64,000 nucleotides of DNA from a virus (lineage: Duplodnaviria; Caudoviricetes), in the IMG/VR virus record IMGVR_UViG_3300037189_004920, positions 816 through 64,815 of that record; one strand, written 5' to 3'. A model generated the notes under the pieces. It was given only the letters and a program-made list of their open reading frames with translations, was not told the DNA's origin and did no database searches. Made by a program: the position numbers and the translations under genes. Below, piece after piece: positions 9,604 to 54,242 of this stretch (the first letter of the stretch is position 1; each line of letters opens with the position of its first letter).

Positions 9604-10782
9604 ATGAAGTATATTGAAGATTTTGTACAACTCTTTGCCATTGGCCAAATACACCTAAGCACATTTGATGAAAAAATTGCTAGTAGCCTTGGCTGGCAAT
9701 GTGTTGAGAACAAAGCATTTACTCAAAAACAGGCAGAAATTGCATTACGGTTGCTGAAAAAATATAAAAAGCAATTTCTTGCACTTGGTCATCAAAATAT
9801 TGAACTTTTTATTGACACTCCTGTGTACAAACATGCACTTAGAGTGATTGATAATCAAAGTGCAGTCACCCTTGATTACAAAGATCAAAAATTTAGAGTT
9901 AAATTTCCGTTTAACCAAGAATTAGTCACAAAAATTCGCCAATTTTCGTCAAAAACACATTTGACGAAACCTAATTGGGATCCTGAAACTAAAACTTGGC
10001 AGTTTGATCTAAATGAAAAAAGTTTAGAATTTATTTTTAATGAACTACTTCCTTTAAAATTTGAAGTTACTGATGAAATATCAGAAATATTGGAAAAATA
10101 CCAAAAAATTAAGGAAAATTTTGAAGATTATGTTCCCATGCTAATCAAGCATCATGACACTTATTGTTTTAAAAATATAAAATCTAATTTTAGTTCCACT
10201 GACTTGACTAGTGCATTAATTGAAAGTGTAAAATTAGCAGTAAGTGTTTACGATGACCAAATTTATGAAGAAATTGGCGTAGTTGGCACTGAATATCCAA
10301 TATACAATATTTTTAAGCAACACGAAAAACAAAATTTTGTGTTACCAAAAGAAAAATATTCACGCACACAAATTTTGCACTTCATGAAAGATATGGACAC
10401 AATCAATGTAATTTTCCTTCATGAAAATGCCACCGCAGAAACGCTAAAAAACTGGATTTTTGACCTAGAATCGTGTGGTATAAGTTTAAGTGATGTCGCT
10501 GTTTTGTTTAGACAAAATAACGAAGGTCAGGGTGTTGAATTCAACAGCGTAGTAAAAAGTTATAACCTAAATAAGTCTACACAAGACAATGTAAAGTGGA
10601 TATTTTTAGGTGGGAAATACCCAAAAAGTTTAGTAAAAAATGAAAAAATTGCAAATATTTGTTTGTTTGAAAACCAGTATGTGTACACACATCATACCAT
10701 ACAAAGTGTCATGAAAAACTCAATTTTTAATTTTGCTCACAACGAACATACAAAACAAGGAGATGGATTTGTCGTCTTGTAA
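9604..10782 (+). CDS. hypothetical protein with possible HARP-like domain
   Basis: VKFPFNQELVTKIR...WDPETKTWQF resembles HARP domains; overlaps helicase start. Confidence 0.45.
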   Translation: MKYIEDFVQLFAIGQIHLSTFDEKIASSLGWQCVENKAFTQKQAEIALRLLKKYKKQFLALGHQNIELFIDTPVYKHALRVIDNQSAVTLDYKDQKFRVKFPFNQELVTKIRQFSSKTHLTKPNWDPETKTWQFDLNEKSLEFIFNELLPLKFEVTDEISEILEKYQKIKENFEDYVPMLIKHHDTYCFKNIKSNFSSTDLTSALIESVKLAVSVYDDQIYEEIGVVGTEYPIYNIFKQHEKQNFVLPKEKYSRTQILHFMKDMDTINVIFLHENATAETLKNWIFDLESCGISLSDVAVLFRQNNEGQGVEFNSVVKSYNLNKSTQDNVKWIFLGGKYPKSLVKNEKIANICLFENQYVYTHHTIQSVMKNSIFNFAHNEHTKQGDGFVVL

Positions 10783-12223
10783 AATAGTATTAAAAGATGA
10801 AGTCAACGTAAAAATTGAAGGTTTAGATTTAGACACTAGGAAAAAATTAGTGTCAATGTTTAAGTACGAGTTGCCCTATGCAAGACACATGCCTGCTTTT
10901 AAATTAGGCAGATGGGATGGTACTGTTAGCTTTTTTGGTCTAGGCGGAACTACATATCTAAGCATGTTAGATAGGGTATTACCTGAGTTAGAAAGCAGAG
11001 GATTTGACATTGATTTAGAAGACTTACGTAATCCAACTAAACTTGAATTTGAAAAAGTCACTGAGACATATTGGGCAGACAAAGGAAAAGTTTGGCCTAA
11101 AGGTCACGTTAAAGAAGGTGAGCCAATTTTATTGCGTGACTATCAACCAGATGCAATTAATAGATTTTTAGAAAATCCGCAAAGCATACAAGAACTAGCA
11201 ACTGGTGCTGGTAAAACAATTATGACTGCTACCATGAGTCATATGTGTGAAAAATATGGACGCACAATTGTTATTGTTCCAAACAAAGGACTTGTTGAGC
11301 AAACTGAAGAAGATTATATCAACGTTGGATTAGATGTTGGTGTATACTATGGTGATAGAAAAGATTTAGACAAGACGCATACGATTTGTACTTGGCAAAG
11401 TCTTAATATACTTGAGAAAAAAGGCAAAGAACTTGACGATGCAATGAAATTGATTGAGTTCATTGAAGGTGTAGTGTGCGTTATTGTTGACGAAGTACAC
11501 ATGGCTAAAGCAGATGTGTTAAAAAATTTGCTAACAGGAGCATTTGCACATTGCCCAATACGTTGGGGACTAACTGGCACAGTTCCTAAAGAAGATTTTG
11601 AATTTGAAGGTATCAAATGTAGTTTAGGCCCAGTGGTTGGTGGTATTTCTGCTCATGCATTACAGGAAGCAGGTCACTTGGCCAATTGCCACGTTAACAT
11701 AATTCAAACTCAAGAATGGAAAGAGTTTGGTGGTTATGCTGAAGAATTAAAATATCTAGTCACTGATAGCGACCGATTAACTTATGTTGCTAATCTTATT
11801 AGAGTAATGTCTGAAACTGGAAATACCCTAGTATTAGTTGACAGGATTGAATGTGGCAAGCAATTGAGTGCTCACTTAGATTGTGTGTTTATTAATGGCA
11901 ACGTTAAGACCACTGATAGGAAAGAACACTATGATGAAGTTCGAGAATCAGATGATAAGATTATTGTTGCCACATATGGTGTAGCTGCCGTAGGTATTAA
12001 CATTCCAAGAATCTTTAATCTAGTTTTAATTGAACCTGGAAAGAGTTTTGTTCGAGTTATTCAAAGTATTGGTCGTGGCATTAGAAAAGCTGAAGACAAA
12101 GACTTTGTACAAATTTGGGACATAACTGCAAGTACCAAATACGCAAAAAGACATTTAACGGAGCGTAAAAAATACTACAAAGAAGCAAAATATCCGTTTA
12201 CAATAGACAAGGTGAAATATTAA
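10763..12223 (+). CDS. uvsW: SF2 DNA helicase (UvsW-like)
   Basis: LRDYQ, ATGAGKT, DEVH, LTGT, GINIP, QSIGRGIR; start could be TTG at 10769. Confidence 0.9.
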   Translation: MDLSSCKIVLKDEVNVKIEGLDLDTRKKLVSMFKYELPYARHMPAFKLGRWDGTVSFFGLGGTTYLSMLDRVLPELESRGFDIDLEDLRNPTKLEFEKVTETYWADKGKVWPKGHVKEGEPILLRDYQPDAINRFLENPQSIQELATGAGKTIMTATMSHMCEKYGRTIVIVPNKGLVEQTEEDYINVGLDVGVYYGDRKDLDKTHTICTWQSLNILEKKGKELDDAMKLIEFIEGVVCVIVDEVHMAKADVLKNLLTGAFAHCPIRWGLTGTVPKEDFEFEGIKCSLGPVVGGISAHALQEAGHLANCHVNIIQTQEWKEFGGYAEELKYLVTDSDRLTYVANLIRVMSETGNTLVLVDRIECGKQLSAHLDCVFINGNVKTTDRKEHYDEVRESDDKIIVATYGVAAVGINIPRIFNLVLIEPGKSFVRVIQSIGRGIRKAEDKDFVQIWDITASTKYAKRHLTERKKYYKEAKYPFTIDKVKY

Positions 12224-13030: not shown

Positions 13031-13475
13031 TATCAAAAAAGAATTGCACGGTGTTGACATGCGAGATAAAGACATGTACAACAACCTTACAGAAGAAGAA
13101 CGTAAGTCATTTAGTCCTTACATACTAATGCGATATGTTAGTAATGTGCAAGGTGATAATGATGTTCAAGAATGGTTTGTTGAAATGACTAACGAGCTGG
13201 TCAACAAGCATCATTGGAAACTTAGTAAGAATCACAAAGGTTTACTATGGAAATTGTTTGCTGGATGTGGTACTGGTGCAAAGGCATATCATCCATATCT
13301 AGCTGCCGGCAAAAAAGAAAAAGCAGTTAAAATTGAAAAATTAATTGCTGAACTTAATCCAGCAATGAAGATGGATGAAGTAAAATTATTGACAAGTTTA
13401 ATGACTAAGGATGACATTGAAAATCTGTTTAACCAGTTGGGGTACGACAAAAAGCAACGCAAGGAATATGAGTAA
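13020..13475 (+). CDS. putative clamp loader small subunit (gp62-like)
   Basis: KSFSPYILMRYVS...EMTNELVN pattern, size and replication context. Confidence 0.5.
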   Translation: MALDIKKELHGVDMRDKDMYNNLTEEERKSFSPYILMRYVSNVQGDNDVQEWFVEMTNELVNKHHWKLSKNHKGLLWKLFAGCGTGAKAYHPYLAAGKKEKAVKIEKLIAELNPAMKMDEVKLLTSLMTKDDIENLFNQLGYDKKQRKEYE

Positions 13476-14148
13476 CTATACGTGTGTTCACTGTGGCAAG
13501 GGATATACCAAAGAAGCAACTTTGGTGGCCCATATGTGTGAGCAAAAACGTAGGGCATTGCAACGAGATGAGAAAAGAGTGCAAGCTGGATTTATGACTT
13601 ATAATAGATTTTATAAGTTGACTCAAAATTCTAAAAAAGATAAAACGTATGAAGATTTTTGCAAAAGCCCATACTACAATGCGTTCGTTAAGTTTGGTAG
13701 TTTTGTTAATAACGTTAATCCTATCTATCCTGACAAGTTTGTTGATTACGTTATCAAAAGTGGAGTTAAGCTCGATCACTGGTGTAGAGATGAATTATAT
13801 TATACCTATCTATCCGAAATGATTAAAATTGAGCCAGTAGACTCTGCAATACAAAGATCACTTAACACTATGATGGAATGGGGTGATGAGCAAGATGCAA
13901 ATTTTGCACATTACTTTAACTATGTTAACATTAATCGTTCAGTTAGACACATTGCTGATGGATTGATTAGTCCTTGGCTGTTATTAAATTGTAACAGTGG
14001 AAAAGATATGCTGGCTAAATTTAACGACGAGCAATTGAACATTGTGTCTGATATTATAGATCCTACATATTGGATGAAAAGATTTAAAACATATCCTAGT
14101 GAAATTGCACTTGTAAAAGAAATTTGTAAAGAAGCAGGAATAACATAA
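13468..14148 (+). CDS. zinc-finger hypothetical protein
   Basis: N-terminal CVHC-x12-HMC; AAGGA before ATG 13468. Confidence 0.6.
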   Translation: MSNYTCVHCGKGYTKEATLVAHMCEQKRRALQRDEKRVQAGFMTYNRFYKLTQNSKKDKTYEDFCKSPYYNAFVKFGSFVNNVNPIYPDKFVDYVIKSGVKLDHWCRDELYYTYLSEMIKIEPVDSAIQRSLNTMMEWGDEQDANFAHYFNYVNINRSVRHIADGLISPWLLLNCNSGKDMLAKFNDEQLNIVSDIIDPTYWMKRFKTYPSEIALVKEICKEAGIT

Positions 14149-14735
14149 TGCCAGATATTGACATAGACTTTTTTGATAGAGATTCAGCACTAAAGCTAAT
14201 CAAGCACGTGCCAGCGAGTCGTATTGAAAATGGTACTGTTAAAAAGCACAATACTGGAGTATATTGTACTTCTATCCCGTACGATTCTGTAACAGGACTT
14301 GCCAGTATAGATTATGAAGAAGCTGAAGATCGTGGCTATTTTAAAATAGATTTTTTGAATGTGTCAATTTATAAAGACATTACTAGTGAACAAGAAATTG
14401 ATCAATTACTGGCTGTTGAACCTCTTTGGGACTTGTTAGAACAAAAAGAGTTTTGTGATTTGATATTTCATATCAATGGATATCATTCATTAGTTGCTCA
14501 GGTAAAACCTAAAAATATAGAGCAGTTGGCCATGTTATTGGCACTGATTAGACCTGGAAAGCGTCACCTTGTTTCAAAGGTAGAACGTGAGGGTTGGGAT
14601 AGTATTAAAGATGAGATTTGGGTTAAAACTGAAGATGAATATAGTTTTAAGAAAAGCCACGCAATTGCCTATGCACATGCTATTGTGGTACAAATGAATA
14701 ATATTTGTAAAGCAATTAGTTACGGATTTTCCTAA
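14148..14735 (+). CDS. minimal DNA polymerase III alpha (DnaE) catalytic-core protein
   Basis: PDIDIDF, KHNTGVY, GYFKIDFL, ALIRPG, YSFKKSHAIAY in DnaE order within 195 aa. Confidence 0.85.
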   Translation: MPDIDIDFFDRDSALKLIKHVPASRIENGTVKKHNTGVYCTSIPYDSVTGLASIDYEEAEDRGYFKIDFLNVSIYKDITSEQEIDQLLAVEPLWDLLEQKEFCDLIFHINGYHSLVAQVKPKNIEQLAMLLALIRPGKRHLVSKVEREGWDSIKDEIWVKTEDEYSFKKSHAIAYAHAIVVQMNNICKAISYGFS

Positions 14736-15102
14736 CACTACGAACAAGTTGAATACTTTTTCGTTTAACTCTTTTTTCTGCTATTTCATTTAGATTAACA
14801 ATTGGCCCAAATACTAAAACAATATCCTTGCTATTAATTGTTTTGATATATCTTCGGTAGTTTTCAAGCTCACCTTTTAAGAATATATTGATAGGTATTT
14901 TTCGATTGCTTTCCCACCACCATTGTTCGCCAAGATCCAGAAGACCTTGTTTTTCAATGTCGTTGTGAATTGCGCCCAGATCATAGATGCTTAGGACGCT
15001 GTCGTTTTGATTGATAACTATGCCCACTATCTCCAGTTCGTTGCAACGAACGCAGGTTAAAAATGGGAATGTCTGTTGTAATGTATTTGTTATGTCGTTC
15101 AC
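14716..15102 (-). CDS. hypothetical protein
   Basis: 128 aa with WWWESNRKIPINIFL; fills the gap between two + genes. Confidence 0.65.
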   Translation of the reverse strand: MNDITNTLQQTFPFLTCVRCNELEIVGIVINQNDSVLSIYDLGAIHNDIEKQGLLDLGEQWWWESNRKIPINIFLKGELENYRRYIKTINSKDIVLVFGPIVNLNEIAEKRVKRKSIQLVRSVRKIRN

Positions 15103-16111: not shown

Positions 16112-17095
16112 ATGAGTCTTTTACAGACAGAACTACTATCATACCTACCTTTTAAAAGAAAACAAACGTCCAGTGGTTGGACTAGTTTTGATGCTCCTTG
16201 CTGTGTTTATAATGGCGAGAGTGCAGACACTAGACAGCGTGGTGGATTTATCAGTCACGGCGGTGGTGGATTCAGTTATCATTGTTTTAACTGTGGGTTC
16301 AAGACCAGTTGGCAACCAGGCAGACAGATTAGTGGCAAAAATAAAAAGTTTTTCAAATGGGTTAATGTACCTAGTAGTAAAGTCAACGAATGGAGTTTAG
16401 AAGCTCTTAAACTTTTAGACAATGGGTCAACCAATCAAGTTACATTCAAGGACTTTGAAGAAGTTGCTCCTCCTTTAGATTCAATGCCATTAGCAGAAGC
16501 AATATTAGAACACGACGAAGCAATCAAATGCTTAGAGTATCTATTAGAGCGTGGACACACTTTAGAAGATTACAATTGGTTGTACAGTCCAATGCCAGGC
16601 TATAAAGATAGATTGGTCATACCCTTTTATCATAGTAAGAAGTGTGTGGGCTACACTGCTAGGAAAGTTGTACCAGGTAGTCCAAAATACCTAAGTGAAA
16701 ATCAAACAGGCTATGTGTTTAATGTTGATAATCAAAAATACACTAGCAAGGTGGTTTTTGTAACAGAAGGCCCATTTGATGCTCTAGCCATTGGTGGTGT
16801 AGCCATACTCACAAACTTGCCAAATGAACAACAAAAAGCTATAATTAATAGTCTAGGCAAGACAGTAGTAGTAGTTCCTGACAGAGATCATACTGGCATG
16901 GGATTTGTTAAAGAAGCTATGGAAATGGGATGGCTTGTGGCAATACCTGAATGGGAAGAAGATATCAAAGATGCTAGTGAAGCATTTAAGCGTTATGGCA
17001 GACTGTTTACCATAAAGACAATTTTAGATACAGCTACAGATAACAAAGTAAAATTGGAACTACTGATGAAACGTTATCCAAAGGAAATTAAATGA
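16112..17095 (+). CDS. DNA primase (gp61/DnaG-like)
   Basis: Zn ribbon PCC...HCFNCG, RLVIPF, PKYL, TOPRIM TEGPFDA and PDRD. Confidence 0.9.
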   Translation: MSLLQTELLSYLPFKRKQTSSGWTSFDAPCCVYNGESADTRQRGGFISHGGGGFSYHCFNCGFKTSWQPGRQISGKNKKFFKWVNVPSSKVNEWSLEALKLLDNGSTNQVTFKDFEEVAPPLDSMPLAEAILEHDEAIKCLEYLLERGHTLEDYNWLYSPMPGYKDRLVIPFYHSKKCVGYTARKVVPGSPKYLSENQTGYVFNVDNQKYTSKVVFVTEGPFDALAIGGVAILTNLPNEQQKAIINSLGKTVVVVPDRDHTGMGFVKEAMEMGWLVAIPEWEEDIKDASEAFKRYGRLFTIKTILDTATDNKVKLELLMKRYPKEIK

Positions 17096-17289
17096 ATACT
17101 CAAGTAACAGCAGGAAGCGTGTGGGAATCAAATAGCAAAAAATTTATGGTAATCCATGTGGTCGAACTAGACGGGCATACTTGGGTACACTATAGAGAAA
17201 ACTTAATGAACAAGGCAACAAGCGACTGTAAAGAATACAGTTGCTACTTAGAAAGCTTCCTTTCAAGATTTAATAAATTACCAGACTAA
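17092..17289 (+). CDS. hypothetical protein
   Basis: 65 aa, coupled between primase and helicase. Confidence 0.6.
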   Translation: MNTQVTAGSVWESNSKKFMVIHVVELDGHTWVHYRENLMNKATSDCKEYSCYLESFLSRFNKLPD

Positions 17290-17291
17290 AC

Positions 17292-18743
17292 ATGCAAAAA
17301 ACAAACTATACTACTGAAATGCAACGACTTTACTTGGAAATGTTTCTAAGTGATGCAGAGACTTTTGTACGTTGCCAAAACATTTTTGATGCTGAAAACT
17401 TTGACCGCAAACTTAAAGATGCAGCCGAGTTCATTAACGGCTATGTGGACAAGTATAAGGTCATGCCTGAACTGGACATTGTTAATACCAGTTGCAGTAC
17501 AGACTTTAAAGATGTGACTGGATTGCCAGTAGAAAACTATGATTGGTTGTTAGATGAATTTGAACAGTTTAGTAGACACAAAGCTCTAGAACGAGCAATT
17601 ATTAAAAGTGCTGACATGCTGGAAAAAGGAGACTTTGGTCCAGTAGAAGCCATGATTAAGGCAGCGGTACAAATTAGTCTTAACAAAGACATGGGTACAG
17701 ATTACTTTGAAGATCCTAAAGGTCGCTTGATGGGACTCAAAGATAAGAACGGGCAAGTCAGTACTGGCTGGCCCACATTTGATAAAAAATTATTTGGTGG
17801 ATTTAATAGAGGCGAGCTGAATATATTTGCAGGTGGTTCAGGTGCAGGTAAGAGTTTGTTTTTACAAAATTTAGCCATAAACTTCAGTCAAGGCGGACTA
17901 AACGTATTGTACGTTAGTTTGGAATTGAGCGAACAATTGGTAGCCATGCGTTTGGACAGTATGATGACTGGCTTGCCCACTAGAGAAATTTTTAAGAACA
18001 TCGATGACGTAGAACTCAAAGTTAAAGTTGCAGGTAAAAGTCAAGGAGCCATACAGGTCAAATACTTGCCATCGGGCAAGAACGTTAATGACCTTAGAGC
18101 CTACATAAAAGAATATCAAGTGAAAAAAGGTCACAAGCCTGATGTTGTGCTCATTGACTATTTGGATCTAATGATGCCGATCAGTGTCAAGATCAGTGCA
18201 GAAAACTTGTTTGTCAAAGACAAGTATGTGAGTGAAGAAATTCGTAACTTTGCCATGGATACCAAGTGTGTATGTGTAACAGCGTCACAGTTGAATCGTA
18301 GTGCTGTGGAAGAAATTGAATTTGATCACAGTCATATTTCAGGTGGATTATCTAAAATCCAAACAGCTGACAACGTGATTGGCATCTTTACAAGTCGTGC
18401 TATGCGTGAACGTGGACGCTATCAAATACAGTTTATGAAGACACGTTCAAGCAGTGCTGTGGGACAGAAAATTGACTTGGACTATAACTTGGACAGTTTA
18501 CGCATTACAGATCCAGGTGAAGAGGGAGATGCCCCACAAGCCAGCTTTGGTCAGGGTGGTGGTCGTGCGCCTAGTACAGGGGCAACTAGCATATTAGATG
18601 GATTGAAAAAGACTTCTACTGTGATGTCTAACGAAGAAGCTCGTGAACCCGATGACGGCATTGCTGTGGGTAAGGTACGTGCTAAAACTGATACCAGCCG
18701 CATTAGAGACATGCTGGCTAATTTGAACAGCGAACGAGATTAA
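17292..18743 (+). CDS. replicative DnaB-like helicase (gp41-like)
   Basis: STGW, GGSGAGKS, SLELSE, IDYLDL, TASQLNR, KTR motifs. Confidence 0.92.
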   Translation: MQKTNYTTEMQRLYLEMFLSDAETFVRCQNIFDAENFDRKLKDAAEFINGYVDKYKVMPELDIVNTSCSTDFKDVTGLPVENYDWLLDEFEQFSRHKALERAIIKSADMLEKGDFGPVEAMIKAAVQISLNKDMGTDYFEDPKGRLMGLKDKNGQVSTGWPTFDKKLFGGFNRGELNIFAGGSGAGKSLFLQNLAINFSQGGLNVLYVSLELSEQLVAMRLDSMMTGLPTREIFKNIDDVELKVKVAGKSQGAIQVKYLPSGKNVNDLRAYIKEYQVKKGHKPDVVLIDYLDLMMPISVKISAENLFVKDKYVSEEIRNFAMDTKCVCVTASQLNRSAVEEIEFDHSHISGGLSKIQTADNVIGIFTSRAMRERGRYQIQFMKTRSSSAVGQKIDLDYNLDSLRITDPGEEGDAPQASFGQGGGRAPSTGATSILDGLKKTSTVMSNEEAREPDDGIAVGKVRAKTDTSRIRDMLANLNSERD

Positions 18744-19300
18744 CTCATCCAGTCGCTGACTGCGCTACGGGCACTGAGCTCCACGCTGGCCCGCCAAAGA
18801 TCCATGCCAGTTAGACCAAAGAGTACTTCATGGTCTGCTGGCGCCACTAGCCAACTGTGTTCTTTGTTCCAAGGCTCTTGCCCAGATATTTCGCCCTCCA
18901 GCTGACCCGGTGCCCAACTGCAAGTGCCCAGTATGAGCCTATACTGTTTGGGTATGTTGCCTGCCATGAGCTCACTGATAAAGCCCATGTCACTGCTCAC
19001 AGACAAGCCTGTACCACTGTGCTGTGTTTCCATGGTACTGACATCAGGGGTGTGTAAAAAATGCAAGCTGGTACTGTTAATAGGACCCCCGGCATGCACT
19101 TCCCCAGGCAAGTCCAATTCAATGTTGACCCTCTTGAGTATGTCAGTATTGGTCACGCTCACAATGGGCTTGTTGACCACCATGCCCCATGCTCCTGTGC
19201 TGGTATGGCTGTTGATATAGATCACGGTGTTGTTGAATCTGCGGTCCAATATCTTGGGTGGTGCTACTAGCAGTTGTCCAGTTAGGTTTTGTATGTTCAT
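18740..19300 (-). CDS. YqgE/AlgH (DUF179) family protein
   Basis: LLVAPP..D..F..TVIY, GAWGMVVNKP, GGP, GTCSWAPGQLEGEI. Confidence 0.88.
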   Translation of the reverse strand: MNIQNLTGQLLVAPPKILDRRFNNTVIYINSHTSTGAWGMVVNKPIVSVTNTDILKRVNIELDLPGEVHAGGPINSTSLHFLHTPDVSTMETQHSGTGLSVSSDMGFISELMAGNIPKQYRLILGTCSWAPGQLEGEISGQEPWNKEHSWLVAPADHEVLFGLTGMDLWRASVELSARSAVSDWMS

Positions 19301-27989: not shown

Positions 27990-28067
27990 TGGTGGGCCCT
28001 GTGTGAGTCGAACACACCACCAATGGATTATGAGTCCACTGCTCTAACCAACATGAGCTAAGGGCCC
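27990..28067 (-). tRNA. tRNA with CAU anticodon, probably tRNA-Ile2
   Basis: GGGCCCT/AGGGCCC acceptor, GCTC/GAGC D stem, GTGGA-CTCATAA-TCCAT, TTCGA loop, encoded CCA; resembles enterobacterial ileX. Confidence 0.9.
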
Positions 28068-32377: not shown

Positions 32378-33091
32378 TCAAGCCTGTTGCATAAAGACCA
32401 CAAAGCCTGAACGGTCTTTCTTAGCACGGCCCTTAGCCTTAAGACCTAGCACCACGCCCCTAGGATCAAGGAAGCGAAGGTCTGTATCATCTGCATTGAA
32501 TACAGTCTTGCCCTTGTACTCTGCAGGGATCTTGTCAAACACAACGGTCACGTTCATGTTCTTGCTGATGGCCCAGTTGGCATCCTTCTCATTGCCGTCT
32601 GCTTGGCTGAACGTGAGGTGATAGTTCTTAATGCCGTCTACCTTGCGCTTGGGCACCTTGGTGTAGTCATAAAACTGTACTTGGGGGAAGGCTTCAAAGA
32701 TGTTAGTGTAGCCCGCTACCTCATACTTCTCCCAGCTCAAGTCGCTAGTACCATTCAAACGGAACACAGGAGTCAAGCCCTTGCGCTCTGCGAACTTGAT
32801 GGCCTTCTGGATGTCTTTGTAGAGATCAGCCATAAAGCCTGCACGGTCTTCAAAGAAGTACTTGGCCTTGCGGATACGTGCCTTCTGGATAGTGTTGGTG
32901 GTCTCACCTTTCTTGAACATACCACCACGACCGGCAGTGTTCAAGCATGCCGCCTTACAACCAGCCGTGGCCTTGGGGCAGGTATTGTAGCCGCTCACAT
33001 CAGCAGGGGCAAGGTGAAGGATAAAGCTCAAGTAGCCTTGCTTGGTACCCTTTTGGATTTTTGGGTTGGCAGTACTTAACAGTTTGAACAT
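32378..33091 (-). CDS. GP88-family protein (Cys cluster)
   Basis: CPKATAGCKAAC, RLNGTSD, FYDYTK; stop in next -35. Confidence 0.7.
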   Translation of the reverse strand: MFKLLSTANPKIQKGTKQGYLSFILHLAPADVSGYNTCPKATAGCKAACLNTAGRGGMFKKGETTNTIQKARIRKAKYFFEDRAGFMADLYKDIQKAIKFAERKGLTPVFRLNGTSDLSWEKYEVAGYTNIFEAFPQVQFYDYTKVPKRKVDGIKNYHLTFSQADGNEKDANWAISKNMNVTVVFDKIPAEYKGKTVFNADDTDLRFLDPRGVVLGLKAKGRAKKDRSGFVVFMQQA

Positions 33092-38351: not shown

Positions 38352-41300
38352 ATGTCTAAAAGTGTAAAAATTCGTAGGGGTAGTAGTCTAGATCATCAAC
38401 AGTTCACAGGCGCCGAGGGCGAAATAACGGTTGATATCACTTTAGATACTCTCAGAGTACATGATGGGGTCACTGTAGGTGGATACCCATTGCTCAACAC
38501 CATTAAAAACTCTCAAGTAACTGCTGAAGAGTTCATAGCAAATAAAATATTATACAAAAACAGTTATGCCAGTCTATCGGCATTCCCCAATGCAGTTACC
38601 TATCCAGGTATGTTGGCCTACGCACAACTGGAAGACAAAGCATATATTAGTAATGGAACCACATGGACATCTTTTACTCAGCCATCAGACCTTACCAATT
38701 TCGTAGTAGGCAGTATCAACACTGCCAACACTGTATTAGACTTTGGAGTTACAGCTCCTAAAGTTGGTACTAATCTAAGCTTCAAAACTCTTAGAGCTGG
38801 AACTAACATCAGCATGTCAGCTGATGCATCTAGTATTACCATAGTTGGTGCTAGTTATACTGGAGAGAACGTACAAGATAGTAGTGGTGGACAAACAGTC
38901 TATAAAACTACAAGTGGTACCAGTTTACAATTTAAAACACTACGTCCAGGCACTGGTATTACCATGTCAACTAGTGTTAGCGGTAATGAAATAAATTTAG
39001 ACACCCCACTCAAACAAGCATACAACACAGTGACAGTTGACACTACTGATATTCCAACCAATACAGTAAACAACACCATAACATTTACTTCAGGCTCAGG
39101 CATCACCCTAACACCAAACACTGTGAGTAAGAGTGTGAACGTGGCTGTGAATCTATCAGCCACCAATAACTCTAGTCAAACAGGCAGTAATGTATTAGGC
39201 AGTTACAGTGCAGGTACATTTGTTTTCAATAAAATTACTGGCGGAACTGGTATTACATTGACCACAGGACCAAATGGTGAAGTTAATATTGATAACGACT
39301 ATGCAGGTACAATTACTGGTGCAATACCAATGTTGCCACCGACACCAACATCTTTGGCAGTGTTCAATGATGTAACTGGCGCAGGAGTACTGCGTTTCTT
39401 TAACATAGCGGCTGGTGATGGAATATCGTTGAGCAATGATGGTAACTCAGTGGTCATAACCAGTACTGGCGCAGGCGGTGGCGGAGCAGGTGTTGGTATC
39501 ATTAACTCTGGTACACTAAATGCTTTGGCATTTTATCCAGGCCCTGGCACAGTAATAAGTCCTACAGCTAGCCCTGTCAAATATGATTCTGTTGATCAAT
39601 TATTGATCACTGATATTGATGGAACTGTAAGTGACATAAGCAACCATACAACTGATGCACTATCAGAAGGAACAACCAATGTCTATTGGACTCAAACTAG
39701 ATTCAATACAGCATTTGGTTTAAAGAATTCAGGAGACCTTGTAGAAGGCGGTTTGAATTTGTATTTTACCAATGAGCGAGCACAGGATGCTGTATCATTA
39801 ATGTTACTTAATGGTAATCCAACGCCATCCAGCATAACAGCAACAACTACGGCATCAAGTACCAGCCTTGCCACAGTGACTGTTGGAAGCACTAGTGGTA
39901 TTACAGCGGGAATGACCGTAACAGGTGCAGGCTTTGGTGCAGGAGTTACCGTTCAATCTGTAGTTAATGCTACAACATTTTTAGTAAGCCCAGCCATATT
40001 TGCGCCAACTGGTACCAGCATTACTTTAACTGGTGTGTCGTCACTAGTTATAAACACTACTGCAAATACAACCAGCAGTGCAACATTTGTTGTTGATAGC
40101 ACAGCAGGTATTACTACTGGATTGTCAGTTATTGGTACAGGTATACTTGGTTCAGTAACAGTGTCTTCAGTGACTAACTCTACATCCTTTATTGTAAGCC
40201 CAGGGTATAACGTCACAGTGGGCAGTGGTGTTGCACTAACAGTTAGAGCACTAGCCGCAACAGGCATAACAAGTGCATATAGTGACCCATCAAATACCTA
40301 TACATACAATTTAGATTATGCAGTAGTTGGTCAACAGATTAGAAACAGTTTGAGTGTTATTGCTGGACAAGGTCTAAGCTATGATCCCGTAAGTGGACGC
40401 TTTGGACTGAGTGGAGCAGTAACCAGTGTAAACGGACTATCAGGAGCGGTGCAGTTGACTGTTGGCGACATAACAGGTGCGGCACCACTTGCAAGTCCAA
40501 CATTTACAGGAACTGCTAGAGTATCAACTCCTACAGCAGGAAGTCCTACACTACAAATTGCCAACAAAGACTATGTGGATCAAGCTAGACTTGCAGTAAC
40601 AGGTAACCCACTAAGTGGATTGGCCACAATACAAGCTCTTGGTAACGCCATTAATGGTGACACATTGTTCTTCCAAACTGTTAACACTAGTCTTGCAGGC
40701 AAGTTAAACACAGCAGGCGGAACACTAAATGGTGTATTGAATTTAAACTACACAATCAATTCTGGTTCAGACCCACTAACTGCTGTTAACAAACAATATG
40801 TTGATGGCGTTGCTCTTGTACAAACAGTTAATAGCAAACAGGGTAACGTGGTATTGGTCACTGATGATATTGCTGAAAGAGTAAGTCCAACAGCTACTAG
40901 ATTATATTTTACTCAAGCTCGTGCAAGAGGTGCAATAAGTTTAACAAGTGCAGATTCAGATATCTTAAGTTACAACATAGGAACTGGTGCATTTACATTT
41001 AACATGCCAGACACTGATAAGATTGTTGAAGGAACTAATCAGTATTGGACCACAACACGCAGTCGTGGAGCAATGGGCATCAACGTAACTGGAAATACTT
41101 CTTTTGCCAGTTATAATGCAGGCACTGGAATTTACACATTTAATGCAACCACTGACAATTTGTCACAAGGTACAACTAACAAGTTCTACGATGATGCTCT
41201 AGTAAGACAAGCAATTACTTTGAGTACAAGTAATAGTCAAGTGGGCCTATTAACATATAATACCAGTACTGGTCAATTTACTGTTGCGGCTCAGACATCA

Positions 41301-42566
41301 AACATATCAGAAGGTGCCGCTGGTCCTTACTACTTTACAGGCACAAGAGTTAACTCTGCACTTGCGGTAAGCGTTACACAGTTAAACAACGTGGCGGCAT
41401 CACAAGTTTTAACATCAGCGTTTAACCCTGCTACATCCGTAACAACATTTACATTTAATGCTAACACAAACAGTATTACAGAAGGCACAAACAACTTGTA
41501 CTTCACAGATACTAGATCTAGAACAGCTATCACTTTAAGTAGTGATGATACAACTGTACTAGCATATAACACAGCTACTGGCGCATTTACCTTTAACAAG
41601 CCTAGCACAACAAAGATTGCTGAAGGTACAAACCTTTACTATACTGATGCTCGTGTAAGATTGGCGCTTGGTGTTAATGTAACTCAAACCACCGGGGTAT
41701 CAATAGCTAATGCTCTTACTTACAGCACATCAACTGGTGTGTTTACATTTAATGCTAACTTAGATAACTTTGCTGACGGTGCAACAAACAGATTTGCTAG
41801 CGTTGGTAGAGTTGCTGGAATTATAAGTTTAAACACAACTACTGCTGACGGCGCTGTTCCAGGAGCACTGCTTGCCTACAACAATTTAACAGGTGCATTT
41901 ACATTTAACAATAGTACTGATAGCTTGCGTGAAGGTTCAGTTAACAAGTGGGCCAGTGCCGCAACTGTTCGAGGACATGTAACTGCATCAGCAACAACAC
42001 CAACAGTAAACAATAGTCAGTTTGCTTTACGCTTTGGTGGAAGTGCTGGTATAGGTGGCACAAATGCTGTAAGTGCTGGTGATATTAATCTTGCTTTCTA
42101 TACTAGTCCAAGTATTGTTTGGACTCCGCAAGCTGATGGTAATACAACATTCCACTTGCGTACAGCACAAGAAATAACAACTACATCTACACCTTTGTTC
42201 AAATACATTACCAAGGCAACTAATCCAGCAGCCGCTGCCTCTGGAACTAGAATTGCAATTGGTGGTCTTGGAGATGTAACGTTTAACTGTTCAGTGGCTA
42301 GCTATCATGAAGTTAACAGAAATGCAAGTATTTCGTCACTGTCATTTACTAACGTTCCAGCAAGTGGACAATATTTTGAAGTGACTGTTGTATTCTATTG
42401 CAATTCAACTGGTTTAAATTTTACAAATAGCAATACCGCAGTTAAGTTTGCTGGTGGCGCACCTCCTACTATGTCTAATAGTATAGGATATAGAGACATA
42501 TTTAAATTTTATACTATTGACGGCGCAAACTTCTATGAGCTAAGTCGTAGTATTGCTGTGAGATAA
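38352..42566 (+). CDS. large tail fibre/virion structural protein
   Basis: IRRG...GEITVD...VHDG N-terminus, T/G/S-rich, about ten TDxxxEGxxNxYxT repeats. Confidence 0.8.
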   Translation: MSKSVKIRRGSSLDHQQFTGAEGEITVDITLDTLRVHDGVTVGGYPLLNTIKNSQVTAEEFIANKILYKNSYASLSAFPNAVTYPGMLAYAQLEDKAYISNGTTWTSFTQPSDLTNFVVGSINTANTVLDFGVTAPKVGTNLSFKTLRAGTNISMSADASSITIVGASYTGENVQDSSGGQTVYKTTSGTSLQFKTLRPGTGITMSTSVSGNEINLDTPLKQAYNTVTVDTTDIPTNTVNNTITFTSGSGITLTPNTVSKSVNVAVNLSATNNSSQTGSNVLGSYSAGTFVFNKITGGTGITLTTGPNGEVNIDNDYAGTITGAIPMLPPTPTSLAVFNDVTGAGVLRFFNIAAGDGISLSNDGNSVVITSTGAGGGGAGVGIINSGTLNALAFYPGPGTVISPTASPVKYDSVDQLLITDIDGTVSDISNHTTDALSEGTTNVYWTQTRFNTAFGLKNSGDLVEGGLNLYFTNERAQDAVSLMLLNGNPTPSSITATTTASSTSLATVTVGSTSGITAGMTVTGAGFGAGVTVQSVVNATTFLVSPAIFAPTGTSITLTGVSSLVINTTANTTSSATFVVDSTAGITTGLSVIGTGILGSVTVSSVTNSTSFIVSPGYNVTVGSGVALTVRALAATGITSAYSDPSNTYTYNLDYAVVGQQIRNSLSVIAGQGLSYDPVSGRFGLSGAVTSVNGLSGAVQLTVGDITGAAPLASPTFTGTARVSTPTAGSPTLQIANKDYVDQARLAVTGNPLSGLATIQALGNAINGDTLFFQTVNTSLAGKLNTAGGTLNGVLNLNYTINSGSDPLTAVNKQYVDGVALVQTVNSKQGNVVLVTDDIAERVSPTATRLYFTQARARGAISLTSADSDILSYNIGTGAFTFNMPDTDKIVEGTNQYWTTTRSRGAMGINVTGNTSFASYNAGTGIYTFNATTDNLSQGTTNKFYDDALVRQAITLSTSNSQVGLLTYNTSTGQFTVAAQTSNISEGAAGPYYFTGTRVNSALAVSVTQLNNVAASQVLTSAFNPATSVTTFTFNANTNSITEGTNNLYFTDTRSRTAITLSSDDTTVLAYNTATGAFTFNKPSTTKIAEGTNLYYTDARVRLALGVNVTQTTGVSIANALTYSTSTGVFTFNANLDNFADGATNRFASVGRVAGIISLNTTTADGAVPGALLAYNNLTGAFTFNNSTDSLREGSVNKWASAATVRGHVTASATTPTVNNSQFALRFGGSAGIGGTNAVSAGDINLAFYTSPSIVWTPQADGNTTFHLRTAQEITTTSTPLFKYITKATNPAAAASGTRIAIGGLGDVTFNCSVASYHEVNRNASISSLSFTNVPASGQYFEVTVVFYCNSTGLNFTNSNTAVKFAGGAPPTMSNSIGYRDIFKFYTIDGANFYELSRSIAVR

Positions 42567-44318: not shown

Positions 44319-45635
44319 ATGCACAAAATTATTGCGGCTCTAGAAGCAGACAACAGTCGTCTTGCCAAAGAAGCAATTATCTCTGCGGAGATGGAAAAGG
44401 ATAATAAAGAATTTTTTGAAGGAGCACTACTTTGTCTAAGTCCCTTCATTACGTTTGGTGTTAAGAAAGTTCCCACACATGGCGGCCCAGATGGTCAAGG
44501 ATTGCCTTGGTCAGTCTTTAAAGACTTGGCAGACAAACTAGCCAAACGTGAACTTACAGGGCATGACGCTCGTGACGCAATTGAACTGTGTTTGAAAACT
44601 GCCAAACAAGACGAATGGAATGGCTGGTACAAACGCATTCTTACCAAAGACTTTAAAGCAGGCTTTGGCGAAAGCACAATCAATAACTGTGCAAAGAAAC
44701 TAAAAAACAAAGAGTTTGGCATTCCATTGTTTGAATGTCAGCTGGCACACGACAGCGCCAAACACGAAAAGAAAGTAACAGGCAAGAAGCTTATTGAAGT
44801 TAAGCTGGATGGTGTGCGTGTTATTACCATTGTTCATCCCAACGGCATTGTCAATATGTACAGCCGTAACGGCAAAGAGCTAGTTAACTTCCCTCACATT
44901 GCAGAACAGTTCGCCAAGTATGCTGGCAACTTAAAAGAAGCCACTGTGTTTGATGGTGAAGTAATGTCTAGTTCATTCCAAGACCTTATGAAGCAGGTGC
45001 ATCGTAAGAGCAACGTGCAGGCTAACGATGCTGTACTGCATTTGTTTGACTACTTGCCACTTAAAAACTTTCAAAAGGGCGGATGGGATATGCCACAAAC
45101 ATATCGCATTGCACAATTGAACAAATGGAAAGAGTCTACTGGAGAGTTTGCTCCTAACATCCAGTGTTTGGATTACGAAGAAGTAGACTTGGACACGATG
45201 GTTGGTCAAGTGCGTTATAAAGAAATTAACGCACAAGCCATTGCTGGTGGCTATGAAGGCATCATGCTCAAAGATCCAGAAGCTGGTTATGAGTGCAAAC
45301 GTAGTGTTGCATGGCTTAAACTTAAACCATTTATTGAAGTTAGTCTCACCGTTGTTGGTGTTGAAGAAGGTACTGCTGGCACCAAGAATGAAAACAATTT
45401 GGGTGCATTAATTTGTGAAGGTGAAGATGATGGAAAATTTATCCGTGTTAATGTGGGTGGCGGGTACAGTGATGATCTGCGTCGTGAGCTATGGGACAAT
45501 AAAGATACGCTTGTGGGACAGATTGTTGAAGTACGTGCAGATGCGGCAACTAAAGCACAAGATGGCGAAACTTGGAGCCTTCGATTCCCTAGATTCCTTC
45601 GTTTCCGCGGCTTCGAAGTTGGCGAGAAAATTTGA
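44319..45635 (+). CDS. ATP-dependent DNA ligase
   Basis: EVKLDGVR, FDGE, EGIMLK, WLKLKP, SLRFPRF. Confidence 0.93.
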   Translation: MHKIIAALEADNSRLAKEAIISAEMEKDNKEFFEGALLCLSPFITFGVKKVPTHGGPDGQGLPWSVFKDLADKLAKRELTGHDARDAIELCLKTAKQDEWNGWYKRILTKDFKAGFGESTINNCAKKLKNKEFGIPLFECQLAHDSAKHEKKVTGKKLIEVKLDGVRVITIVHPNGIVNMYSRNGKELVNFPHIAEQFAKYAGNLKEATVFDGEVMSSSFQDLMKQVHRKSNVQANDAVLHLFDYLPLKNFQKGGWDMPQTYRIAQLNKWKESTGEFAPNIQCLDYEEVDLDTMVGQVRYKEINAQAIAGGYEGIMLKDPEAGYECKRSVAWLKLKPFIEVSLTVVGVEEGTAGTKNENNLGALICEGEDDGKFIRVNVGGGYSDDLRRELWDNKDTLVGQIVEVRADAATKAQDGETWSLRFPRFLRFRGFEVGEKI

Positions 45636-47891: not shown

Positions 47892-48551
47892 ATGAAAATT
47901 AGACGAAATAGTGAGCGTGGCTATATTCCTCACAGCAGACTAGGCGAAGATAACTTTGAAAGCTATCGTAGTTTTAGTTTTGAAGGCTACCAAGATCCCA
48001 AGTACGATTGCTGGGGTCCTATTAGAACAATTAACGATGATAGAGCACAACCTGGATTTATTACCAGCCATCACGAACATGTGGGTTTAGATATTCTAAG
48101 TTATGTAGTACGAGGTCAGGTGCATCATAAGGATAACTTGGGCAACGAACTTCAAGCACAAGAAGGACAAGTACAATGGATGAGTTGTGGTACAGGCATT
48201 TGGCACACAGAAGGAAACACTAGTGACAAGCCTAACCGTTACTTACAAATATGGATCATGCCCAATAAGATTGCTCCAGTGTGGCAACCTAAATATGAAT
48301 TAATAACTCGACCAGCTGGGTTTGCCAAGTTGCCTTTACAGTTACAAAACACAGAGCTAGAAGTGTGGGCTGGCAACTTAGATTGTTACATGGATATTGT
48401 TAACAGTTATCTATTGGTATTAGAAGGAAGCATTCGTGTAGGAGATACTATACTTACAGAAGGAGATAGTATTGATACAGAAGGCGACTATGTTACTGTG
48501 GAGCCAATAGGAACACCACACCTACTACTGTTTGAACTACACTACAATTAA
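47892..48551 (+). CDS. pirin family protein
   Basis: SFSF..Y...INDD...H.H...I.SYV..G...H.D...VQWM..GTGIWH.E...LQIW. Confidence 0.9.
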
Positions 48552-49738
48552 AACATTGTTTTAAGAGCTTTAACCAAATCCTCAATCATTCCATCATCGT
48601 GAAACGGAGTAGGCGCAAAACGTAAACGCTCTGTCCCCACAGCCACAGTAGGATAGTTGATTGGCTGCACATATATGTTGTGCTCGTTTAGTAATGCATC
48701 ACTCATGGCTTTACACTTCTTAGCATCTCCCACTAGCACAGGAACAATATGTTCTGTAGCACAACTCATAACTTCAATACCAGCAACACCTAAACGATGT
48801 TTTAGTTTACGAGCACGTTCTTGATGCTTCTCACGTATCTCATTGTGATCTTTAAGATACTTAACAGCCGCTAGAGCGCCTGCACAACTAACTGGGCTCA
48901 TACTGGTAGTAAAGATAAAGCCAGCTGCCACACTACGAATCGCATCACACACTACGGAGTCGGCAGCAATATAGCCGCCCTGTACTCCAAATGCCTTGCC
49001 CAGTGTACCATTTATGATATCTATTTCAGATTCTAGTCCAAGCTCTTCAACTTTGCCACCGCCATGTTGTCCATATAAACCAACAGCGTGAACTTCATCA
49101 ATATAGGTAATGGCTTTGTATTTTTTAGCAAGGCGGCATATTTCTTTAATGGGACTAACATCGCCATCCATGCTGTAGACACTTTCAAAAGCAATGCATG
49201 GTGTATTTCCTTGTGCAAAACTAATTTTAAGTTTCTGTTCTAAATCTTCTAAGTCGTTGTGTTTGAATACAACTTTCTTGGCTCGACTATGACTCATGCC
49301 CACAATCATACTGTTGTGGTTATTTTCATCACTGATATATTCTATGTTGGGTATAATTTTAGCAAGAGCAATAAACGTCCATTCATTAGCAACATAGGCA
49401 CTACTGAAAAGCAGTGCTTTGGGTTTCTTATGTAACTGAGCAAGTTCGTATTCAAGGGCCACGTGATAGTGACTGGTCCCGCCAATATTGCGGGTGCCGC
49501 CTGATCCTGCCCCAGTATGATCTAAGGCGGTGTGCATGGCATCTAGCACAACTTTGTGCTGTCCCATGCCCAAATAATCATTTGAACACCAATTAACTAT
49601 GTTTTTAATGTTGTAAGGCCCGTACCAAATGGCTGTGGGGAATTTGCCCGCCTCACGCACAATGTCATTAAACACGCGGTATTTGCCCGTTTCTTTTAGG
49701 CTTTCTATCAGGTCTTGAAAAGGTTGCTTGTTAATCAT
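48548..49738 (-). CDS. hemA: 5-aminolevulinate synthase (C4 pathway)
   Basis: [60 protein letters not shown]. Confidence 0.92.
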
Positions 49739-54037: not shown

Positions 54038-54241
54038 ATGGCAATAACATTTCCAACATCGCCCACAATAGGGCAAGAATACGTAGCAGATAACTCTGCC
54101 ACTTATCAATGGACGGGCAGTCAGTGGAGCACACAAGTTCCTTGGCTAGCAGGTAGAGCACAATATGTAGCAGGCGGCGGGGTTGCCGACCAGACTTACA
54201 ACGAAGATTTAGATAACACCCTTGGTGGAGGCGGAGCATAA
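54038..54241 (+). CDS. small tail-associated protein
   Basis: FPTSPTIGQ.Y...YQWTG..W module; AGGA RBS. Confidence 0.65.
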   Translation: MAITFPTSPTIGQEYVADNSATYQWTGSQWSTQVPWLAGRAQYVAGGGVADQTYNEDLDNTLGGGGA

Positions 54242-54242
54242 A

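Follow-up and report, generated by a model that had tools for sequence, protein, structure and literature searches.

A 195-residue DnaE-like protein of an uncultured jumbo phage as the probable C-terminal half of a split, minimal C-family nucleotidyltransferase

What can a DnaE-like protein of only 195 amino acids (aa) do in a phage? The question is raised by a gene in the IMG/VR virus record IMGVR_UViG_3300037189_004920 (Duplodnaviria; Caudoviricetes). We analyzed positions 816 to 64,815 of this record, that is, 64,000 of its 64,815 bases (hereafter the window, to which all coordinates refer unless stated otherwise); CheckV rates the record as ~18% complete. Existing annotations of proteins of this kind read 'DNA polymerase III alpha subunit' (JGI) and 'DnaE-like DNA polymerase III alpha' (Sinorhizobium phage Phosso). 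An earlier note, made from the DNA letters without database searches, described the product as a miniature DnaE and suggested that it is one half of a split minimal C-family polymerase or a repurposed nucleotidyltransferase. The first of these suggestions is supported by a match to the phrog_11778 family, by the fold, by residue conservation and by the presence of a separately encoded N-terminal half in relatives. The protein is probably the metal- and template-binding half (hereafter C-half) of a two-polypeptide minimal C-family nucleotidyltransferase of group 2.2 jumbo phages, likely to serve as an auxiliary polymerase beside the family B polymerase (PolB).

The C-half open reading frame (ORF) is intact and starts with ATG, as the earlier note had it, and all the motifs listed there are present in the order given, which is that of DnaE: PDIDIDF, KHNTGVY (residues 33-39), FKIDFL, LIRPGK (read as ALIRPG in the note) and YSFKKSHAIAYA (residues 164-175). 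The features of the gene are:

14136..14150, plus strand: AGGA Shine-Dalgarno-like site and TAATG stop/start overlap with the upstream gene (read from the sequence)
14148..14735, plus strand: C-half of the putative split minimal polymerase III alpha, comprising the second palm part, a remnant of the thumb and shortened fingers (ORF, phrog_11778, AlphaFold2 model, VIA-align)
14151..14171, plus strand: PDIDIDF, residues 2-8, with the metal-binding aspartates D3 and D5 of the DxD strand, plus D7 (conservation)
14340..14357, plus strand: FKIDFL, residues 65-70, with the invariant K66 and the third catalytic aspartate D68 (conservation, alignment to E. coli)
14544..14561, plus strand: LIRPGK finger motif, residues 133-138, with the invariant P136 (alignment)
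14643..14672, plus strand: FKKSHAIAYA finger motif, residues 166-175 (conservation, alignment)

The PDIDIDF motif is weak when taken alone (domain E 0.35-0.8) and is collinear with LPDVDLDF or MPDFDIDF of contiguous DnaE proteins. FKIDFL is aligned with VKFDFL of E. coli (K553 and D555, as numbered by counting in the printed alignment), LIRPG with LFRPG at positions 637-641 of E. coli alpha in the comparison of the profile with PDB, and FKKSHAIAYA with FNKSHSAAYA, found both at ~755-764 of E. coli alpha and in the DnaE of Pseudomonas phage nickie. The ORF contains no GxGRGS motif, PHP domain, clamp-binding region or OB region, which agrees with the earlier note.

The resemblance of the C-half to DnaE is beyond chance. 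The protein matches phrog_11778 ('DNA polymerase', 197 positions) with an E-value of 1.3e-66, residues 3-188 lying on profile positions 8-193, and gives a weaker match to the DnaE-type phrog_405 (1190 positions, E 1.2e-7). When the profile of an alignment of 89 diverse C-half relatives with 31-51% identity to the query (A1) was compared with all PDB sequences, the nine best matches were all polymerase III alpha chains (E 6e-6 to 2e-4). With A1 as input, AlphaFold2 gave a model with a mean predicted local distance difference test score (pLDDT) of 96.4 and a predicted template modeling score (pTM) of 0.88, and a Foldseek search of PDB with this model returned only C-family polymerases at ranks 1-17 (best E 2e-4). 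VIA-align, a fold search independent of Foldseek that covered 48,161 chains, placed C-family polymerases at all of ranks 1-7 (Z 6.6-9.7), followed by Z 4.5 at rank 8. The scores include 9.7 for PolC (3F2B), 9.3 each for DnaE1 of M. tuberculosis (5LEW) and the T. aquaticus enzyme (2HPI), and 8.1 for E. coli 5M1S and 5FKU; in these top seven superpositions 186-192 of the 195 residues are aligned, with a root-mean-square deviation of 3.1-4.1.

Residues 1-193 of the model lie on positions 401-784 of E. coli alpha, roughly half of that stretch being gone. The profile alignments locate the loss in two gaps: from the PDxDxD strand to the KHxxGV segment ~95 residues of the nickie DnaE are passed over, and from the RPG to the KSH motif ~100 residues. 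By the domain boundaries of E. coli alpha, we take the lost parts to be the bulk of the thumb and a portion of the fingers. The C-half ends at alpha ~784, or ~782-790 of the 1130 residues of the nickie DnaE, and contains nothing equivalent to later DnaE, a region that presumably holds the remainder of the fingers together with the beta-clamp motif, the OB fold and the tau-binding end.

The family is large and its active-site residues are retained. Of the 8,000 candidates (107-342 aa) that were scored in a word-indexed search, 7,929 were relatives at E<=1e-3, which puts the family at 7,929 clusters or more; the 120 relatives listed are, with few exceptions, 191-196 aa long, and overall lengths are mostly 187-212 aa. 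An exhaustive search of representatives at 50% identity gave 442 matches at E<=1e-3, 279 at E<=1e-10 and 76 at E<=1e-30. Across the 89 sequences of A1, K66, D68 and P136 are invariant, and conservation is at least 90% at D3, D5, D7, A23, H34, G37, W94, P121, A128, I134, R135, K138, K168, H171 and A176; the three catalytic aspartates (D3, D5 and D68) are all among these positions. Against ten relatives, nonsynonymous differences amount to 0.18-0.29 per site (pN) and synonymous ones to 0.72-0.84 (pS, saturated); the ratio of nonsynonymous to synonymous substitution rates (dN/dS) is ~0.11-0.12 for two of these pairs, the other eight yielding no dS owing to saturation of the synonymous sites. Judged from these comparisons, the gene is under purifying selection and is not decaying. 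One 233-aa protein (P0245) starts as a C-half that is cut off after about residue 110 and continues as unrelated sequence; chimerism or a frameshift in the metagenomic call is the probable cause.

Where, then, is the missing GRGS part? The small GxGRGS-containing ORF that the earlier note proposed to look for is absent from the window and from the record, but exists as a separate 161-177-aa ORF (hereafter N-half) in relatives. In the window, no G-x-G-[RK]-G-S motif is present in any of the six frames, tblastn with three N-halves gives a best E of 0.5 and a hidden Markov model of four N-halves a best E of 2.6; in the whole record, PF07733 (DNA_pol3_alpha) detects 0 candidates. An N-half is encoded in all three isolate genomes compared (Sinorhizobium phage Phosso, Agrobacterium phage Atu_ph07 and Pseudomonas phage vB_Pa-PAC2), as ORFs of 169-177 aa with PF07733 positions ~18-98 above the curated cut-off and C-termini of the form ...GVGRGS(S/C)V(A/S)SY...(D/K/S)EFL(N/K/E)*. 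Three of five large C-half-bearing IMG/VR contigs also encode one (161-176 aa), including G001 (364.5 kb, rated 100% complete), and throughout the relatives the protein ends ...GVGRGS...EFL[NKER]*. Only this N-half piece, and no full-length DnaE, was seen in the three isolates and five large contigs, which speaks against the possibility, raised in the earlier note, that the C-half is a decaying copy beside a complete enzyme.

The genes for the two halves are never neighbors in the genomes compared, the distance between them being ~31-224 kb:

PBECO4: ~31 kb
PAC2 / PA5oct: ~43-44 kb
G001: ~180 kb
Atu_ph07: ~182 kb
Phosso: ~224 kb

The halves nevertheless co-occur. Of the records in the phage collection, 96 match the C-half and 121 the N-half; the extra N-half matches, among those listed, are mostly to the GRGS region of full-length DnaE in unrelated phages. 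Counted by host genus, N-half and C-half records number 34 and 34 in Escherichia, 8 and 8 in both Erwinia and Salmonella, 4 and 4 in both Xanthomonas and Yersinia, 2 and 2 in Agrobacterium, and 10 and 11 in Klebsiella. The N-half family is as large as that of the C-half (7,940 of 8,000 scored candidates); unlike the C-half, the N-halves of relatives pass the PF07733 cut-off, and this family is precomputed on nearly all of the 120 listed N-half relatives.

The model of the N-half, built on an alignment of 39 sequences (A3), has a pLDDT of 84 and a pTM of 0.64. In VIA-align its residues 55-161 lie on E. coli alpha 273-393, with Z 6.8-10.2 for seven C-family chains and 3.0 for the next chain; Foldseek returned nothing at E<=1e-3, though ranks 1-12 were all polymerase III alpha. 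Residues 1-54 have no DnaE counterpart, and a phmmer query of PDB with the first 51 residues gave nothing at E<=10. Position 273 of alpha is presumably where the palm starts after the PHP domain. No counterpart of the PHP domain is seen in either chain, the fold matches beginning at alpha ~273 for the N-half and 401 for the C-half; what the two halves jointly retain is alpha 273-393 and a trimmed 401-784, a bare palm whose fingers are shortened.

Two small ORFs lie downstream of the N-half gene in Phosso, PAC2 and Atu_ph07, one of 113-153 aa and, after it, one of 108-116 aa that appears GroES-like by eye, which suggests that the N-half lies in a non-replication neighborhood:

N-half neighborhoods of Phosso, PAC2 and Atu_ph07: L004 1195-2576; L005 1216-2407; L006 744-2040

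The two halves fit each other closely when placed on contiguous DnaE proteins. On the nickie DnaE (1,130 aa) the last residue matched by the N-half profile is 410 (...FERFI) and the first matched by the C-half profile is 417 (LPDVDLDF); for a metagenomic DnaE (L102, at least 1,134 aa) these residues are 390 and 396 (...FERFLNPDRISMPDFDIDF). The half-profiles thus abut within 6 residues, so that the split removes at most ~6 residues and leaves no room for intein fragments, and in the fold superposition the C-half has no unaligned extension; the earlier note, too, had seen no intein residues.

Co-folding of the halves, which the earlier note had recommended, was carried out with the C-half of the window (on A1) and the N-half of the complete contig G001, a 60%-related genome (on A3). 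The interface score ipSAE was 0.91 in three of three runs, vs 0.00 for the best of three controls; partner pLDDT was at least 79 and the runs shared at least 97% of contacts. In the calibration, 58 of 80 solved complexes and 2 of 110 mismatched pairs reach the mark, a guide that is only rough here as custom alignments were used. In the predicted interface the Asp strand of the C-half (residues 2-9) meets the VWGVGRGSS segment of the N-half (residues 122-135), as would be expected for a single Pol-beta-like palm, and the model supports physical pairing of the two halves.

A fused form is also on record. P0157 (375 aa) consists of an N-half ending ...IKEFIK, a 9-residue linker and a C-half starting ADFDIDT..., and is the sole fusion among 150 listed representatives. 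It has no relatives in viral contigs, and a word-based search for longer fused relatives (343-2000 aa) found none at E<=1e-3, which is weak evidence. P0157 could be a natural but rare fusion, or it could be an artefact of assembly. Two metagenome loci covering the junction were considered as further fusions and rejected, being ordinary DnaE genes of at least 955 and at least 1134 aa. The C-terminus of the C2H2-type protein encoded next to the C-half was likewise rejected as the segment between GRGS and PDxD; the true N-halves carry this segment up to ...EFL[NKER]*.

All 96 phage records that match the C-half do so at less than 60% identity, and those listed are nearly all genomes larger than 280 kb of the Rak2, PBECO4, Atu_ph07 and PA5oct groups, the exceptions being partial records and one 142-kb phage. 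By sequence, the C-half appears to belong to this Rak2 / PBECO4 / Atu_ph07 / PA5oct-type lineage of jumbo phages. The search for PolB suggested in the earlier note had a mixed outcome: the record has none, which is uninformative at its level of completeness, but four of the five large relative contigs contain PolB open frames of 887-901 aa above the cut-off.

From these observations a mechanism can be proposed. The C-half carries the acidic triad D3, D5 and D68 together with the finger motifs, and by itself would lack the GxGRGS element that holds the triphosphate of the incoming nucleotide, an element that lies at the end of the separate 161-177-aa protein. The two chains would associate non-covalently, the Asp strand packing on the GRGS segment to complete one Pol-beta-like palm. 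The assembled enzyme would count ~360 residues and have no PHP, proofreading, clamp-binding or OB parts. It would most likely add deoxynucleotides to a primer as an auxiliary to the T4-like family B polymerase, and its possible jobs include primer extension at the primosome and repair or recombination synthesis. That this enzyme carries out templated DNA synthesis beside PolB is an inference.

Several points weigh against this proposal. The Pfam model DNA_pol3_finger (PF17657) scores the C-half at 18.5 bits, below its cut-off of 22, and PF07733 gives it no match. Neither an N-half nor a PolB of this phage was found in the window, and the pairing is carried over from relatives of at most 60% identity, among which contig G004 (79% complete) has no N-half by PF07733, and G005 (56% complete) has neither a PolB match nor an N-half, its only PF07733 match being sub-threshold and to another region of the model. 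The N-half in the complex model is a stand-in from a relative, and the high score may reflect likeness to, or memory of, solved structures of contiguous DnaE. P0157 is a singleton on one 2,415-bp ENA contig. It is not certain that an enzyme lacking the bulk of its thumb and a portion of its fingers could hold a primer-template. Finally, no experimental report on any member of the family was found in the literature, subscription-only papers and supplements lying outside the search.

Four other explanations have to be weighed. The two-piece protein might be real but repurposed, as a Pol-beta-fold nucleotidyltransferase engaged in end tailing, in nucleotide signaling or in modifying a substrate in phage-host conflict. 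This possibility, the second suggestion of the earlier note, is consistent with the near loss of the thumb and of ~100 finger residues, with the lack of any clamp-binding, OB or proofreading part, with the complete PolB that this phage group already has, and with the 54-residue N-terminal piece of the N-half that has no DnaE counterpart. We nevertheless consider it improbable: the finger residues R135, K138, K168 and H171 are kept under strong selection at what we take to be the DnaE positions contacting the incoming deoxynucleoside triphosphate and the template, the gene is located in a conserved replication/recombination block (UvsW, primase, DnaB), and other nucleotidyltransferase families proved unlike the C-half in both fold searches (Foldseek and VIA-align). 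It is less probable still that the C-half works alone, as a miniature polymerase independent of any N-terminal partner, which the title of the earlier note implied. All three acidic residues do reside in this chain, and its model is confident by itself, but the GS element that defines the Pol-beta-like nucleotidyltransferase fold is absent from it and is supplied by a co-occurring separate protein, and it is mainly through its N-terminal Asp strand that the chain is predicted to contact the N-half.

The opposite view, that the C-half is a catalytically dead remnant of a full-length DnaE with at most a structural or regulatory role, might be prompted by its length, one sixth of that of DnaE, and by Pfam scores below the cut-offs. 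Such an origin is very hard to reconcile with the uniform size of nearly all of the 120 listed representatives (~195 aa), with catalytic residues that are invariant or nearly so, with pN far below the saturated pS, and with the failure to find a full-length DnaE in the relatives searched; we rate it as highly improbable. In cyanobacteria, DnaE is encoded in two distant genes, DnaE-n and DnaE-c, whose products are joined by a split intein, and the great distance between the phage genes brings that arrangement to mind. However, the phage halves, both minimal, show no spare sequence that could hold intein fragments, meeting within 6 residues on contiguous DnaE, and the C-half lies on the DnaE fold along its length. 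Covalent joining by a split intein has almost no likelihood, and without intein fragments the assembly of the phage halves must be non-covalent. The preferred explanation remains the two-polypeptide enzyme in which the C-half provides the metal- and template-binding part.

How does this enzyme compare with known systems? It shares with bacterial polymerase III alpha or DnaE (2HNH, 5FKU, 5M1S, 2HPI, 5LEW) and with PolC (3F2B) the Pol-beta-like palm with the PDxDxD and KxD acidic residues, as well as the RPG and KSH..YA finger motifs and the fold (Z 6.6-9.7). In contrast to bacterial alpha, the GS element is on another polypeptide, the PHP domain is missing and about half of the region corresponding to alpha 401-784 is deleted. 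Phage-encoded C-family polymerases also include the DnaE of nickie (1130 aa) and those of group 3.2 jumbo phages, with which, as tested on nickie, both half-profiles align collinearly; these are contiguous, host-like proteins of ~1,100 aa, whereas the present system is split and minimal. The group 3.2 versions, for example that of phage G, carry a PHP domain according to Iyer et al. (2021, Viruses 13:63, PMC7824862).

The novelty that the earlier note assumed is lower than it appeared, the same paper having computationally predicted a 'minimal, split DNA polymerase III alpha' in group 2.2 jumbo phages. Iyer et al. describe the C-half as a 'C-terminal Mg2+- and DNA-template-binding' unit and consider possible cooperation with PolB in the synthesis of one strand or in repair (PMC7824862). 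The protein studied here corresponds to that description in being a stand-alone ~195-aa C-half from a T4-like jumbo lineage whose relatives encode a distant N-terminal NTP-binding unit and a PolB; it differs in nothing of substance, apart from the present member being uncultured and metagenomic. What the present analysis adds is the junction at residue level, the DnaE range of each half, the models, a controlled prediction of pairing, the fused singleton and the neighborhood counts. In the literature searched, no analysis of the split form other than that of Iyer et al. was found; the Sharanji paper merely lists a 'DNA polymerase III DnaE' gene. Polymerases in pieces are also reported from chimalliviruses, where a family B polymerase is encoded as separate parts (PMC13648687); those phages belong to group 1 and the polymerase to family B rather than C, so that the trait in common is a jumbo-phage polymerase in pieces.

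The comparison of C-half gene neighborhoods covered 80 related loci of 52-76% identity, selected from 598 confirmed stretches. The window contains a T4-like replication/recombination module of SSB, UvsX, UvsY, UvsW, primase and DnaB, and the following features flank the C-half or recur in the loci:

10733..12223, plus strand: UvsW-type helicase, head of the conserved block (ResIII E 5e-22, phrog_16 E 1.3e-74; 61/80 loci)
p151: in 72/80 loci
p168: in 65/80 loci
13468..14148, plus strand: C2H2-type zinc-finger protein, upstream (phrog_11058 E 3.7e-63; zf-C2H2 sub-threshold)
14716..15102, minus strand: convergent 128-aa ORF (phrog_11637, of unknown function), overlapping the 3' end of the C-half gene by 20 nt
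16112..17095, plus strand: DnaG-type primase (phrog_47 E 2.9e-34; 70/80 loci)
17292..18743, plus strand: DnaB-type helicase (phrog_19 E 7.3e-76, DnaB_C E 1.8e-20; 59/80 loci)

The order of genes is the same in PAC2, Phosso, Atu_ph07 and PBECO4 (39-52% identity). A 65-aa ORF lies between the primase and DnaB genes (block 16112..18743, plus strand), and the convergent 128-aa ORF is found downstream in all 74 loci with at least 500 nt of downstream sequence. The C2H2 protein is encoded upstream on the same strand in 77 of the 78 loci with at least 800 nt upstream. Its mechanically called ORF begins at 13411; the likely start is M20 at 13468, the Atlas record beginning at residue 20, and with this start the overlap with the preceding 151-aa ORF would be only 8 nt. 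An Atlas search with this protein returned only its own viral family, and phrog_11058 has no known function.

The translational coupling claimed in the earlier note fits the stop/start overlap of the C2H2 and C-half genes in the window, where the upstream TAA (14146-14148) and the ATG (14148-14150) share one base and AGGA precedes the ATG by 8 nt, but this overlap is not general in the family: by a rough estimate the genes abut (gap <=0) in only ~11 of 77 loci, the others mostly having 150-630 nt between them or an insertion of 1-3 kb, and PBECO4 has an extra small gene in between. The C2H2 protein was accordingly rejected as a coupled partner, the neighborhood being conserved and the abutment not, and the idea that it works together with the C-half finds no support, the N-half partner being encoded far away. 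Nor is there support for the adjacent clamp-loader-like proteins that the note had supposed; no ORF next to the C-half matches a clamp-loader family in Pfam or PHROGs.

Directly upstream of the UvsW-type gene, and overlapping it, is a gene for a 392-aa protein (9604-10782, plus strand) with a sub-threshold match to HARP (HepA-related; E 3e-5, 23.9 bits vs a cut-off of 25); it has no PHROG match and is found in 18 of the 80 loci.

Elsewhere in the window, composition shifts sharply at ~18 kb, from a GC content of 0.34-0.38 with positive skew over ~8-18 kb to 0.43-0.49 with negative skew up to ~36 kb. The region of ~18-36 kb contains mostly small minus-strand ORFs and may be a differently evolving or acquired genome arm. 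AlgH, mainly a bacterial family, is represented at the boundary, and the protein concerned has no PHROG match and may be host-derived. Other observations are:

18740-19300, minus strand: AlgH-like (DUF179) protein, 186 aa (E 7e-30), at the GC boundary right after the DnaB gene
27990-28067, minus strand: tRNA-Met(CAT), the single tRNA of the window
32378-33091, minus strand: GP88-family protein (E 1e-42)
38352-42566, plus strand: giant ORF of 1404 aa beginning with an Mtd_N (major tropism determinant N-terminal) domain (E 3.8e-9), probably a fiber or receptor-binding protein
44319-45635, plus strand: ATP-dependent DNA ligase (E 2e-18)
48548-49738, minus strand: class I/II pyridoxal phosphate-dependent aminotransferase (E 3.7e-66), likely an auxiliary metabolic gene
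50065-54009, plus strand: giant ORF of 1314 aa, probably a fiber or receptor-binding protein
54222-58430, plus strand: giant ORF of 1402 aa, probably a fiber or receptor-binding protein

What might such an enzyme mean for these phages? In Bacillus, DnaE extends primers before hand-off to PolC. By a bolder proposal, which we hold to be rather doubtful, the pair is an active template-directed polymerase, the smallest C-family core known, and is dedicated to extending primase-made primers at the primosome before hand-off to PolB; such a role would explain why the C-half gene is locked with those for primase, DnaB and UvsW across the lineage. If so, the pair would offer a working model of the ancestral, pre-PHP polymerase III on which Iyer et al. 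speculated (PMC7824862). The C-half belongs to a kind already described computationally, of which it is an uncultured member, and it is an attractive biochemical target. Here a bacterial replicative polymerase has been cut to a bare palm with short fingers and divided over two non-neighboring genes, in a family that is very large in metagenomes, both halves saturating the search of 8,000 candidates, and strongly selected. If the pair is active, it would define the minimal catalytic core of C-family polymerases and would place a bacterial-type and an archaeo-eukaryotic-type polymerase in one phage replisome, which would bear on the origins of the two replication systems.

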